Below, piece after piece: positions 11,275 through 25,630 of a DNA stretch of 64,000 bases. The translations under genes and the position numbers were made by a program. The first letter of the stretch is position 1. Each line of letters begins with the position of its first letter. The notes beneath the pieces are model-generated. The model was not told the origin of the DNA. It worked only from the letters and a program-made list of their open reading frames with translations, and did not search any database. Source of the stretch: a phage; the sequence record PX418213.1; one strand, 5' to 3'.

Positions 11275-11976
11275 TCAAATTTTCATTTTTTCGATCATAG
11301 CTGCAACACAATAGCTCTCAACTAAGGCATCAAATGCAGGAGCATGCTTAACCGGATAGATCCCATAACGAATGGTGTCCATCTTTTCCATTTTAGCTAT
11401 TGCCCAGCTAATACCTTCGGTCTCTAGAGCTTTATAACTGTATCCAGCTTGCATCCAGAGATTACGAAGAGATCGAACATTGCCCAAATTCCAGAATTTC
11501 CACGGAACTACCTCTTCATTGGTTCCAGCATGGAACGTATTTGCAGAGTAGATAGTCATATCAAACTCTGGGCCATTGCCATAATACAAAGCATTTTCGC
11601 CTAGAGCCAACTCCATAATATTTTGAGCCATAGAGAAGGCAGCATAGTTTGAGCCTAATTTATTAGTGCAATGATGTTTACCATTTTGGAAGGCAATCAG
11701 TTTTGGATTACGTTCCTTCATAGCTTCCATAATGTGGATAGCAGACGGACTATTTTTAGCTTGATCCATCCAGAATGCTAGAGTAGATGCTGTAACTTTG
11801 GCACCAGAATTAAGTTGATCTTGCACATCCAAAGTAACAAATACTAGATCAGGGTCTTTATCAATTCCATGCATAGCCACAAAAGCGAAAGAAGGCATTG
11901 CGATATGAGTAGTACCACAATCTCCTGGAGTTCCTAGAGATTCAATATCTAGCATACCAAATGGTTTTACTTTCAT
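11275..11976 (-). CDS. DnaQ-like 3'-5' exonuclease (DEDDh type)
   Basis: Exo I-like MLDIESLGT (DxE) near the N-terminus and Exo III-like KHAPAFDAL (H-x4-D) near the C-terminus. Confidence 0.5.
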   Translation of the reverse strand: MKVKPFGMLDIESLGTPGDCGTTHIAMPSFAFVAMHGIDKDPDLVFVTLDVQDQLNSGAKVTASTLAFWMDQAKNSPSAIHIMEAMKERNPKLIAFQNGKHHCTNKLGSNYAAFSMAQNIMELALGENALYYGNGPEFDMTIYSANTFHAGTNEEVVPWKFWNLGNVRSLRNLWMQAGYSYKALETEGISWAIAKMEKMDTIRYGIYPVKHAPAFDALVESYCVAAMIEKMKI

Positions 11977-12547: not shown

Positions 12548-13063
12548 TTACTTCGCTTTACGCTTGCGAGCTGGTTTAGCAGATTTACGAGCAGAATCAC
12601 CCGTGAACTTAATGCCTACACCGTAACACAGAGCACGAACATTATCTTTACTATACTCTACGCCAAAGATATTTGGCTTAACAGAACCAAACTGTCCACG
12701 AGTATCACGCAATACATCTGCTGTTGGTTTACGCTTCTGGTTAACTGCCTTCTCATAGTCTTTCATAGACATACCATTACGAGAGAACAATTCAGCCCCA
12801 GCGTTGAAGCTCAAGGAAACCGGGACAGATTTGTGGCCGTAATTTTCTACATACATAACCATTTTGTAGGATTTACGGGTGGCATTTTTAGCTTTAGGCT
12901 TTTGACGAATCGGAGCCGGGTTATTCAGTGCTTGTGCAGCCTGAGCATCGGTAGGATGCTTACGCAGGTGACGTTCCAGGCGAGCTTTGCGATTAGCCTC
13001 GGTCTGCGGGAAAGTTTTAACTGCCGGAGCTGCTTGAGTTTTTGCGTTTTTCTGCTTAGCCAT
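12548..13063 (-). CDS. hypothetical basic protein (171 aa), possible nucleic-acid binding
   Basis: Lys/Arg-rich N- and C-termini; promoter motif at about 13102-13130 upstream. Confidence 0.5.
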   Translation of the reverse strand: MAKQKNAKTQAAPAVKTFPQTEANRKARLERHLRKHPTDAQAAQALNNPAPIRQKPKAKNATRKSYKMVMYVENYGHKSVPVSLSFNAGAELFSRNGMSMKDYEKAVNQKRKPTADVLRDTRGQFGSVKPNIFGVEYSKDNVRALCYGVGIKFTGDSARKSAKPARKRKAK

Positions 13064-13101: not shown

Positions 13102-13130
13102 ATTATACGAGAATTTGAAGCGTTTAGCAA
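13102..13130 (-). promoter_or_regulatory. sigma70-like promoter (minus strand)
   Basis: attata/tagcaa with 17-bp spacer; upstream of 12548..13063. Confidence 0.5.
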
Positions 13131-13138
13131 ATGAATTT

Positions 13139-13588
13139 TTAATTTATTAACTGTAAGCTTCTTTTAATTTCAGACCTTACCTGCATCAAAAGAACTCCTA
13201 AAGTATTATCCCCGATGCCTCGGCAAACACCCCAATATGTATCTCCCCAGGTATTTCCTTCGATCAAAGTTGCATTTTTTGTTGCTAACAGTTTGTCTCT
13301 CAAATCAGGGATTGCAAACTTTAACCGTAAAAGCTCTAGCATTACATCATCTTTTACCTTATCCCAGTCAGAGCGCAGAGTTAATTTACGTCCTCTACGT
13401 TTGGCAACTCCTGCATTTAGGGAGCGCAGTACATGAGCTACATCATCTTTTTGGTCGGATTTCATAGCCTGAAAAGCATGTTCTACAGTATCAGCATGCC
13501 ATATCTCATTTAGGTATTCGAAAGTAATTGGTGATAAATAAAAGTTAGATAAGAAACTATAAGCACCTTTAAATTCAGTAATCTTCAT
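13139..13588 (-). CDS. NADAR (YbiA-like) domain protein
   Basis: FLSNFY, HAFQAMK and EGNTWGDTYWG motifs characteristic of the NADAR/DUF1768 family. Confidence 0.65.
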   Translation of the reverse strand: MKITEFKGAYSFLSNFYLSPITFEYLNEIWHADTVEHAFQAMKSDQKDDVAHVLRSLNAGVAKRRGRKLTLRSDWDKVKDDVMLELLRLKFAIPDLRDKLLATKNATLIEGNTWGDTYWGVCRGIGDNTLGVLLMQVRSEIKRSLQLIN

Positions 13589-13869
13589 TTTTTACGCCCC
13601 GCATCTTTAGCCTCTTCGGCTGTATAGATATACTGATAAGCCCCTTTGGAGTAGGCTGGAGCAGTACACATTTTCTTACGCTCAATCTCTTCTTGGGCTT
13701 TTCTTTCGCGTTCAGCTAATTCTTCATCCAGATAAACTAAACGTTGTTCTGGAGGGGGTGGAAGACGTGTTTCTGGCTCACCAATATTAGCCTTTCTTAT
13801 TTGACGAGGTGATTGTGCACGTTTTCTCAATGGTTTAAATCCTAATGAATTTGAGTTATAAATCCGCAT
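13585..13869 (-). CDS. hypothetical protein (94 aa)
   Basis: ORF track; promoter motif at about 13897-13925 upstream. Confidence 0.45.
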   Translation of the reverse strand: MRIYNSNSLGFKPLRKRAQSPRQIRKANIGEPETRLPPPPEQRLVYLDEELAERERKAQEEIERKKMCTAPAYSKGAYQYIYTAEEAKDAGRKK

Positions 13870-13946
13870 AAAGCCCTCCTCACTTTCAATACGAATATTA
13901 TACTAAATTAGAGGGCTTTAAGCAAGAGAATTTTTTAATTTATTTA

Positions 13947-23788: not shown

Positions 23789-23978
23789 TGGTTTAAATGC
23801 CGCTTTGGAAAATGCATTAATGCAGCAGTGGGAAACTGGCTATAAGGATGGTGTTGAATCCTGTGCTACTATGCTAGAAGTTATTGCTAATACCTTAATG
23901 GAGAAAGGCAATAAAGAATTAGCTGAGCTATTAGACAGTATTGGGCAAAACTTCAGAGAACAGGTGAAAAATGCGTAG
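23757..23978 (+). CDS. hypothetical protein (73 aa)
   Basis: ORF track; GAGGAG SD upstream. Confidence 0.45.
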   Translation: MAFSKPMLPDNGLNAALENALMQQWETGYKDGVESCATMLEVIANTLMEKGNKELAELLDSIGQNFREQVKNA

Positions 23979-24789
23979 ATTAATTATTATTAGCGGTGCA
24001 GGTTTGAGTGTTGAAAGTGGTGTACGAGCTTTTCGTACTGATACTACTAGTGGTAAAGCACTGTGGGATGACTATGATCTAGAAGAAGTATGTAATATTC
24101 ATGCCTTTCGTGGTAATTTTTATCATAAAACCCATATGTTTTACAACAAGCGTCGTGAAGAGCTAAAAACTGTTGAACCCAATCTTGCGCATTTGCGTAT
24201 TGGTGAATGGTATAAACAATATCCAGGTCAAGTAGTAAACTTGACTACCAACGTTGATGACCTTATTGAGCGTGCTGGAGTTCCACATAGTGACATTCTG
24301 CACATTCACGGATATTTAAAAGAGGTTGTTGTAGCTGATAGCTACAATAGTAGCAATAAACGGATTATTGATGTAGGATACAATTCTGTTGATCCAGATG
24401 ATTATAAATGGGTTAAACCTAATGTAATCTTCTTTGGAGAGCATGCTCCTGCATACGCAGAAATGTATAATGTTTTTGATGGTATTACCAGTCAAGATAT
24501 GATCATTGTGGTTGGTTGCTCTAACCAAGTAATTAACTTCTACTGGGAATTATTTCCTGTTCTTAATTTGACTGCTGCGAAACTTATGGTTGTTAACTAT
24601 TATGATAGTGCCCTAGCGGCGGAACCGGGCTATCAAGGTATGACTCGTAGTGAGATGTACCAGCTGGAAGAACGTGGTATCCCTTACTGGAGTAAAGGTG
24701 CAGTAGATGCTTTCAGTGATCCTGATTTTATTGCTCGTGTAGAAGCTCATTTAGAGGGTAGACCTTATGTGTCGAGAAGCAAGAAATAA
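23971..24789 (+). CDS. Sir2 (sirtuin)-family NAD-dependent protein
   Basis: N-terminal NAD-binding motif ISGAGLSVESGVRAFR, catalytic His context (ILHIHGYL), VIFFGE and IVVGCS blocks. Confidence 0.65.
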   Translation: MRRLIIISGAGLSVESGVRAFRTDTTSGKALWDDYDLEEVCNIHAFRGNFYHKTHMFYNKRREELKTVEPNLAHLRIGEWYKQYPGQVVNLTTNVDDLIERAGVPHSDILHIHGYLKEVVVADSYNSSNKRIIDVGYNSVDPDDYKWVKPNVIFFGEHAPAYAEMYNVFDGITSQDMIIVVGCSNQVINFYWELFPVLNLTAAKLMVVNYYDSALAAEPGYQGMTRSEMYQLEERGIPYWSKGAVDAFSDPDFIARVEAHLEGRPYVSRSKK

Positions 24790-24964: not shown

Positions 24965-25137
24965 TTAAATCTGTGTATACACATCCAGATGATATATTTG
25001 TATGGGCGGATGGTAGTTGGTGCTATCGCTGTGAGCTGTGGGAAATGGATTATAAATCCGATGACTATGGTGTTATATATGTTGATACGGTTGAGTATGA
25101 TACGTTCTTAGAAAGGAACAGAAATGGAAATAAGTAA
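24955..25137 (+). CDS. hypothetical small protein, paralog of the previous ORF
   Basis: Shared motif; GAGGAGAAACAGG SD then ATG. Confidence 0.4.
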   Translation: MSIVKSVYTHPDDIFVWADGSWCYRCELWEMDYKSDDYGVIYVDTVEYDTFLERNRNGNK

Positions 25138-25630
25138 TACTCCAATTATTTTTCTAGACATTGATGGGGTGCTCAATTCGAGCATCTCCCACCATCATGC
25201 ACCTGACGATGAGAAGATTTTCTTTGGAAGTGATTGGGTTTTCAAACCGCTTCTCAAGGCTTTTCAGGACTTTATTCGTCCTTCTCCAATAATGATTGTT
25301 GGAGTATCATCTTGGTTCTCTGTCAGAAATGAGATGGAGAACGTTCGGATTATGACCGGATTAGGTCTTATCGATCGTTTTCTTGGTACAACGGATTTTA
25401 CTGGTGGTGGATTATCTAGGGGTAATTCTGTTCTTCGTTTCGTCGAAAAGCATAAGCTCAAACATTGGTGTGTACTTGATGATGCGGGTGCTATGATGTA
25501 TCAGTATCCAACGGTTATAGTCAACGGTAGAACTGGGATAAATCTTCAAGATTTAAAAGCTGTTAGCTATATGCTAGAATTTAGCCCAGATCTTGAAATG
25601 TGTAAATCCTTACAACAATTTAAGGTGTAA
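25124..25630 (+). CDS. HAD-superfamily phosphatase-like protein
   Basis: N-terminal HAD motif I (IIFLDIDGVLNSS); AAAGGAACAGAA SD. Confidence 0.55.
   Translation: MEISNTPIIFLDIDGVLNSSISHHHAPDDEKIFFGSDWVFKPLLKAFQDFIRPSPIMIVGVSSWFSVRNEMENVRIMTGLGLIDRFLGTTDFTGGGLSRGNSVLRFVEKHKLKHWCVLDDAGAMMYQYPTVIVNGRTGINLQDLKAVSYMLEFSPDLEMCKSLQQFKV

Follow-up and report, generated by a model that had tools for sequence, protein, structure and literature searches.

Sequence and predicted structure identify the early-region NADAR gene of a T5-like phage as the known orphan antitoxin AdfN-Bas32

Does a small gene in the early region of a T5-like phage encode an enzyme that removes ADP-ribose from DNA, and if so, what does it protect the phage against? 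The gene lies in a stretch of 64,000 nucleotides (PX418213.1), called the window here. A preliminary description of this DNA had proposed a NADAR-domain protein, possibly able to reverse the ADP-ribosylation of guanine by DarT-type toxins, and had paired it with a Sir2-like gene.

We found that the gene encodes a NADAR-domain protein. The ORF list gives an ORF of 149 aa with an ATG start, with ends exactly as follows:

13139..13588, minus strand: NADAR-domain gene, 149 aa, ortholog of AdfN-Bas32 (ORF, Pfam, AlphaFold2 model, Foldseek, and near-identity to bas33_0070 and bas32_0066)

The strand had been left unstated in the preliminary description. The three NADAR/YbiA-like motifs that it named are all present in the translation: FLSNFY at aa 12-17, HAFQA at aa 37-41, and EGNTWGDTYWG at aa 110-120. 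It had also proposed a profile search against PF08719 (NADAR). In our Pfam search this family matched the ORF over its full length, at profile positions 9-163 of 163, with 78.9 bits (E=6.9e-22) against a gathering cut-off of 35.1 bits, and the fold and active site described below agree with the assignment. In addition, the ORF matched phrog_1017 ('unknown function') in PHROGs with E=8e-45, and had 1037 homologs at E<=1e-5 in a large protein collection, with PF08719 in 120 of the 120 matches listed. Because the Pfam score is far above the cut-off, and because of the PHROG match and the number of homologs, the NADAR match is beyond chance.

On the plus strand, two ORFs fall within the gene, 13215..13436 and 13237..13467; we regarded both as shadow ORFs of the conserved gene on the minus strand. 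The protein was rejected as a member of NF053876 (DS32_2 NADAR-family anti-phage protein), since it scored 44.9 bits against an NCBIfam cut-off of 240. Labels for the gene in GenBank vary and include 'swarming motility protein YbiA', 'GTP cyclohydrolase II', 'N-glycosidase', 'DUF1768/NADAR', and 'hypothetical protein'.

The predicted structure has the NADAR fold. An AlphaFold2 model of the protein, made with a 40-sequence alignment as input, had a mean pLDDT of 97.4 and a pTM of 0.90, and contained the YbiA-like alpha-helical core with flanking small beta-hairpins that characterises this fold. Foldseek searches of the PDB with the model found E. coli YbiA (2b3w; TM 0.82, 37% identity, probability 1.00) and the ADP-ribose-bound NADAR of Phytophthora nicotianae (PnNADAR; 8bau; TM 0.76, 28% identity, probability 1.00). 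The match to the DarT1-linked NADAR of Geobacter lovleyi (8bat) was weak (E=0.66, TM 0.52). As modelled, the window NADAR is a minimal YbiA-like core without the N-terminal extension of DarG1 NADARs.

We found that the active site is intact. In PnNADAR, ADP-ribose is held by E43, K50, K75, R79, W89, R93, E125, D130, and W133 (Schuller et al., PMC11543638). By pairwise alignment (SEQRES offset +2), these contacts map in the same order to E36, K43, K63, R67, W75, K79, E110, D116, and W119 of the window protein. K79 replaces an Arg (R93) and the remaining eight residues are unchanged. Six of the nine (E36, K43, K63, E110, D116, and W119) are invariant in 40 homologs. W75 is found in 39/40, the position of K79 is K or R in 40/40, and that of R67 is R or K in 36/40. 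Absence of the catalytic residues had been named beforehand as grounds for giving up the NADAR assignment; all nine ADP-ribose-contact positions are kept. The residue at the catalytic position splits the superfamily, with Glu in the YbiA and NADAR families, Asp in DarG1, and His in T4-type phage NADARs (PMC11543638). In the window protein this residue is Glu110.

The protein is nearly identical to one of published function. Two phages of the BASEL collection, Bas32 and Bas33, described as 'Markadamsvirinae closely related to T5', encode a NADAR that was named AdfN-Bas32 (Johannesman et al., Nat Commun 2025;16:1598, PMC11825919; preprint PMC11257639; here and below, statements from this paper refer to the portion of its text available to us). 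We identified AdfN-Bas32 in GenBank by the bas32_ and bas33_ locus tags and by the single NADAR match in each genome. The window protein is identical at 148/149 positions to bas33_0070 (QXV80081.1) of Bas33 HildyBeyeler (MZ501074), differing by A9T, and at 148/149 to bas32_0066 (QXV80247.1) of Bas32 IrisVonRoten (MZ501075), differing by K104E. The nine ADP-ribose-contact residues include neither of the two positions. The NADAR family varies strongly at position 9, and position 104 is K or E already within the protein's own clade. Between the window gene and that of Bas33, 7 codon differences are synonymous and 1 is non-synonymous, a ratio that fits purifying selection. The gene order around the NADAR gene is the same in the window, Bas32, and Bas33. 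Given this near-identity and the shared genomic position, which define the orthologous group, the window gene is by its sequence the AdfN-Bas32 orphan-antitoxin NADAR of T5-like phages, a gene already known.

The GenBank NADARs of Bas32 (A9/E104; locus L089, 5642-6091) and Bas33 (T9/K104; locus L002, 3001-3450) differ from each other at two residues. They are called identical in the available text of the publication (PMC11825919), against the GenBank records. With A9/K104, the window allele is a single substitution away from either.

The published support for AdfN-Bas32 is in vivo rescue from plasmid expression. In the available text of that report (PMC11825919), plasmid-expressed AdfN-Bas32 neutralised DarT1 in E. 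coli without any phage, and ectopic AdfN-Bas32 brought RB69, T5, and Bas25 back to full titre on DarTG1 hosts. It gave T5 no help against the thymidine-modifying DarTG2. Reversal of DarT-type guanine ADP-ribosylation, which the preliminary description had suggested, has thus been demonstrated there for a protein one residue away; because of the 148/149 identity, the earlier idea corresponds to an established property of an essentially identical protein. The present analysis established what the gene is, its NADAR fold and intact active site, how close it is to AdfN-Bas32 (99% identity), the gene order that it shares with Bas32 and Bas33, and its accessory distribution. DarT1 neutralisation, phage rescue on DarTG1 hosts, and specificity for guanine and not thymine come from the literature on the near-identical protein.

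Based on these results we suggest, with considerable confidence, that the gene product is an ADP-ribosylglycohydrolase of the NADAR superfamily that stands alone and serves, as an 'orphan antitoxin' of the AdfN type, in counter-defence against DarT1. In the proposed mechanism, the NADAR would be expressed, presumably early, from an early sigma-70 promoter together with a small upstream gene. DarT1 of a host DarTG1 system would place ADP-ribose on guanine of the phage DNA, and the NADAR would hydrolyse the N-glycosidic bond that joins ADP-ribose and guanine. With the adduct removed, the phage genome could again be replicated and transcribed. By analogy with AdfN-Bas32, we infer that the protein does this job against DarT1 during natural infection by the window phage.

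The rescue experiments also bear on a different proposal, that phage NADARs in general degrade soluble ADP-ribose-derived signals (Iyer et al. 2022, PMC9503650). Applied to the window, the enzyme would act on soluble immune signals or by-products and not on macromolecular adducts, and the homologous active site of 8bau does hold free ADP-ribose. However, rescue from a DNA-modifying toxin, as described in the available text of PMC11825919, is direct evidence for macromolecular adducts, and the neighbourhood of the gene shows no sign of association with a signalling system. We consider this reading very improbable.

The locus is that of a T5-like phage. The 2 kb around the NADAR gene are 99.7% identical to Salmonella phage SE11, a Tequintavirus (Demerecviridae, Markadamsvirinae), and from this match we identify the window as a T5-like phage, essentially SE11. 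The NADAR gene lies inside the classical T5 early block, in which nrdA, nrdB, frd, thy, and rnh are followed by small genes. Its placement in the early region, as first described, is borne out by these surroundings (rnh, thy, frd, nrd). The features next to the NADAR gene are as follows:

12548..13063, minus strand: DUF7022 gene, 171 aa, directly downstream of the NADAR gene (full-length match, E=1.8e-76)
13102..13130, minus strand: P-H207-type promoter (TTGCTA, 17 nt, TATAAT) for the DUF7022 gene (promoter scan; T5 annotates P-H 207 here)
13585..13869, minus strand: T5.090 homolog, 94 aa, no Pfam family, upstream of the NADAR gene (84/92 identical to T5.090)
13897..13925, minus strand: candidate sigma-70-type promoter (TTGCTT, 17 nt, TATAAT), then a GAGGAGGG ribosome-binding site, upstream of the T5.090 homolog

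We found that the NADAR gene and the T5.090 homolog probably form one transcription unit. The stop codon of the T5.090 homolog and the start codon of the NADAR gene overlap in ATGA; co-transcription of the pair is therefore probable, and their translation would be coupled. Upstream of the pair, TTGCTT lies at 13925..13920 and TATAAT at 13902..13897, and the sequence from the -35 hexamer through the start codon of the T5.090 homolog is identical to a T5 region that carries a promoter annotation. With a -35 hexamer that fits only 3/6 positions, this promoter was missed by the consensus scan. It is the likely promoter of the T5.090 homolog-NADAR pair.

Relative to T5 (NC_005859), the NADAR gene is cleanly inserted, with the T5.090 homolog on one side and the P-H207 promoter on the other. 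In T5 the order is rnh (T5.091), promoter, T5.090, promoter P-H207, and T5.089, and the gap between T5.090 and T5.089 is only about 80 bp, with no NADAR gene in it. The T5.090 homolog is 91% identical to T5.090, and the divergence is confined to the last ~12 residues, at the insertion junction. At the other edge, the P-H207-type promoter begins 9 nt past the NADAR stop, and downstream of that stop the alignment to T5 is base-for-base identical from 'AAAAATTCATTTGCTAAACG' onward.

Two labels in this region deserve comment. The DUF7022 gene is called 'swarming motility protein' in the SE11 record, a label apparently carried over from the adjoining NADAR gene. Further downstream, a 233-aa protein (11275..11976, minus strand) matches the domain of Rv2179c-like 3'-5' exoribonucleases (PF16473, E=3.6e-8). 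It is labelled 'metallopeptidase' in SE11, Bas32, and Bas33, and 'exonuclease' in T5 (T5.087); the PF16473 match makes the 'metallopeptidase' label doubtful.

We found that the NADAR gene is unevenly distributed among T5-like phages. It was present in 96 phage records at 96.4-100% nucleotide identity, and about 440 T5-like phage records matched the surrounding 2 kb. At the corresponding locus it was absent from T5 (NC_005859) and from the T5-like phage Bas26 (MZ501072). Judged from these records, the gene is accessory in T5-like phages. T5 is reported to be strongly restricted by DarTG1. Patchy presence, with absence that goes with sensitivity to DarTG1, is the pattern expected of an accessory counter-defence gene, a correlation drawn from very few phenotyped phages. 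The gene was also found at 98-99% nucleotide identity in two records of 2-3.5 kb, OR848833.1 ('Listeria phage LM 4-14-1') and OR847649.1 ('LM 4-11-1'). Contamination with T5-like fragments, or mislabelling of the records, is a likelier explanation than the presence of the gene in true Listeria phages.

The distribution and the resemblance to YbiA together bear on a metabolic alternative, in which the protein is a housekeeping YbiA-type N-glycosidase that destroys reactive intermediates of the riboflavin pathway and serves phage-directed metabolism rather than counter-defence. YbiA is the closest solved structure (phmmer E=3.5e-15, in addition to the TM-score above), and several phage records carry the labels 'N-glycosidase', 'GTP cyclohydrolase II', or 'swarming motility protein YbiA'. 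TIGR02464, the YbiA equivalog domain for riboflavin-intermediate N-glycosidases, scored 66.5 bits with the window protein. This score is under the curated NCBIfam cut-off of 73.7, and membership was rejected. Furthermore, riboflavin genes were not found near the NADAR gene, and a patchy, accessory phage distribution suits counter-defence better. The near-identical AdfN-Bas32 neutralises DarT1 in cells, as stated in the available text of PMC11825919, whereas E. coli YbiA does not (PMC11125620). A riboflavin-related role is therefore highly unlikely, in our judgement, and counter-defence against DarT1 is the reading that we retain.

The window contains a second gene whose product could be related to NAD or ADP-ribose:

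23971..24789, plus strand: Sir2-family gene (PF02146, E=5.4e-25)

The preliminary description had spoken of two NAD/ADP-ribose-related enzymes. Both genes are indeed present, but a functional link between them is not indicated. If there were one, the NADAR might reverse or tune ADP-ribosylation by the phage's own Sir2-family enzyme, a notion that starts from the occurrence of both genes in the window. However, the two are ~10 kb apart, on opposite strands, and in separate transcription units. SE11 has both, and T5 has only Sir2 (T5.102); because T5 has kept Sir2 without a NADAR gene, the two are not inherited together. In addition, the available text of PMC11825919 describes AdfN-Bas32 as acting without other phage factors. 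We rejected the link, and give a Sir2 partnership hardly any credence.

The Sir2 gene lies two small ORFs upstream of a gene (25124..25630, plus strand) with a HAD_SAK_2 domain, PF18143, which is the HAD type of 'Swiss Army Knife' RNA-repair proteins. In T5 the homolog of this second gene, T5.105, bears the label 'Sir2' (NC_005859), apparently a mis-annotation.

Other NADAR alleles were found in T5-like phages. The T5-like Salmonella phage vB_SenS_UTK0009 (OQ359889; locus L004, 3001-3450) has a divergent NADAR of 149 aa that is 60% identical to that of the window. There the order is rnh, NADAR, T5.090 homolog, and DUF7022, and in the window it is rnh, T5.090 homolog, NADAR, and DUF7022. Since the divergent alleles occupy different but adjacent sites, the arrangement suggests two independent NADAR acquisitions by T5-like phages at one small hot spot. 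A T5-like Logan contig (SRR10680568_2548; locus L005, 3001-3354) encodes a variant of 117 aa with an in-frame deletion of aa 48-79, so that K63, R67, and W75 are lost. The deletion falls exactly between two 12-nt direct repeats, AAAGATGATGTA, which the window gene has at nt 139 and 235. This variant is probably a slipped or recombined, inactivated allele.

The cellular relatives, which are 44-54% identical and spread over many phyla, were surveyed for neighbouring genes. In 80 cellular loci, a shallow survey with spurious ORFs in the high-GC loci, we found no recurrent ART partner beside the NADAR gene. The only identifiable neighbours were LPD11 and DUF3085. A gene for the LPD11 'large polyvalent protein-associated' domain (PF18824) lies ~16 nt downstream in 11 loci, and those seen were from Firmicutes (e.g., Eubacterium ramulus, locus L064, 2015-2488). 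A DUF3085 gene is the recurrent upstream neighbour in 7 loci (representative: Azotimanducaceae, locus L033, 2148-2723). Several single MAG chromosomes carry 4-5 NADAR copies (Bryobacterales OZ241991 and Azotimanducaceae OZ241908). The neighbour genes and the multiple copies suggest that the cellular relatives reside on mobile elements and not beside an ART toxin.

These contexts, together with the catalytic residue, raise the question of whether the target is broader than, or different from, DarT1-modified DNA. Hydrolysis of G-ADPr in vitro has been shown for E. coli YbiA and T4 gp30.3, yet neither protects cells from DarT1 (Cihlova et al., PMC11125620), so that specificity in cells cannot be read from the fold alone. 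For the clade of the window protein, activity in cells comes from direct measurement (PMC11825919). The window protein is without the N-terminal extension that is proposed to bind ssDNA in DarG1 NADARs, and DarT1 may therefore not be its sole or main natural target. The enzyme could remove ADP-ribose from cytidine as well as guanine, in DNA, RNA, or both, with DarT1 one among several sources of such adducts. It might then counter other ADP-ribosylating defences or toxins (pierisin/ScARP-like, YarT-like, or RNA-targeting ARTs).

Several observations are consistent with this possibility. E110 is a Glu, invariant in the 40 homologs, as in the 'NADAR' and 'YbiA' families and not the Asp or His types. 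Those Glu-bearing NADAR- and YbiA-family enzymes that were tested took C-ADPr off DNA and RNA, whereas DarG1 and the T4 NADAR did not, and removal of G-ADPr from RNA was reported for all NADAR families (PMC12945103). The nearest cellular relatives are in mobile-element contexts and not beside DarT. However, the experimental data for this clade are DarT1 positive and DarT2 negative only, in the available text of PMC11825919, and our literature search found no cytidine-ADP-ribosylating defence system of enterobacteria. We regard the broader or different target as conceivable but doubtful, and are equally tentative about its strongest form, proposed by analogy with the Glu-bearing enzymes, in which the protein would be a broad-spectrum eraser of cytidine-linked and RNA-linked ADP-ribose that protects beyond DarTG1. 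If this were true, T5-like phages would have been under recurrent selection for an enzyme of this kind, and the two independent insertions of divergent NADAR genes at neighbouring sites would be a reflection of it.

Counter-defence against DarT1 remains our preferred reading, and it gives an anti-defence gene its correct name, since most T5-like GenBank records say 'swarming motility protein', 'GTP cyclohydrolase II', or 'hypothetical protein'. On this reading the window phage, unlike T5, should plate on hosts with DarTG1, a prediction that matters when phages are chosen against Salmonella and E. coli in therapy or biocontrol. The locus opens no new question, because the mechanism and function are published for a protein one residue away.

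How does the window NADAR compare with known systems? DarG1 (the BC4488 family; G. lovleyi 8bat and E. coli C7) belongs to the same superfamily and carries out the same reaction on DarT1-modified guanine, and both would neutralise DarT1 in cells, for the window allele by analogy with AdfN-Bas32. DarG1 has a catalytic Asp where the window protein has Glu110. At its N terminus DarG1 also carries a beta-beta-alpha extension that the window protein is without, and the basic surface of this extension is a proposed ssDNA-binding site. A darT1 gene adjoins the DarG1 gene, whereas no darT1 or other ART gene is adjacent to the window NADAR, whose neighbours are the T5.090 homolog and the DUF7022 gene. 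Membership in the DarG1/BC4488 family was rejected on the Glu in place of Asp, the core-only architecture, and the weak match to 8bat.

With ~150 aa, AdfN-T4 (T4 gp30.3) is likewise a core NADAR that stands alone and counters DarTG1 through removal of guanine-linked ADP-ribose, and E36 and K43 of the window protein are at matching positions of its E-x6-K motif. The relation between the two is visible only at the profile level. BLASTP found no similarity between the window NADAR and T4 gp30.3 (E=1.1), and hhalign aligned the LSNF motif and the Glu of E-x6-K with a probability of 82.8%. The result is in line with the published view of independent NADAR acquisition by phages. T4-type proteins have a catalytic His in place of Glu110, and with the BLASTP result and the profile-level similarity this led us to reject membership in the T4-type group. 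The activities also differ: in the available text of PMC11825919, full activity of AdfN-T4 is confined to T-even infections, and in uninfected cells DarT1 is neutralised by AdfN-Bas32 but not by AdfN-T4.

E. coli YbiA (2b3w), the closest solved structure, shares the minimal core fold and the catalytic Glu. It gives cells no protection from DarT1 (PMC11125620), in contrast to AdfN-Bas32, and is controlled by LexA in the dinG-ybiB operon (PMC11125620), whereas the window gene is in the early region of a phage. AdfN-Bas32 is nearest to the window NADAR. The two differ by one substitution, whichever of the Bas32 and Bas33 records is taken, and the closest full-length phage to the window, SE11, has Salmonella and not E. 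coli K-12 as its host range. They share their length, the locus (rnh, T5.090 homolog, NADAR, DUF7022), and the phage genus, Tequintavirus.
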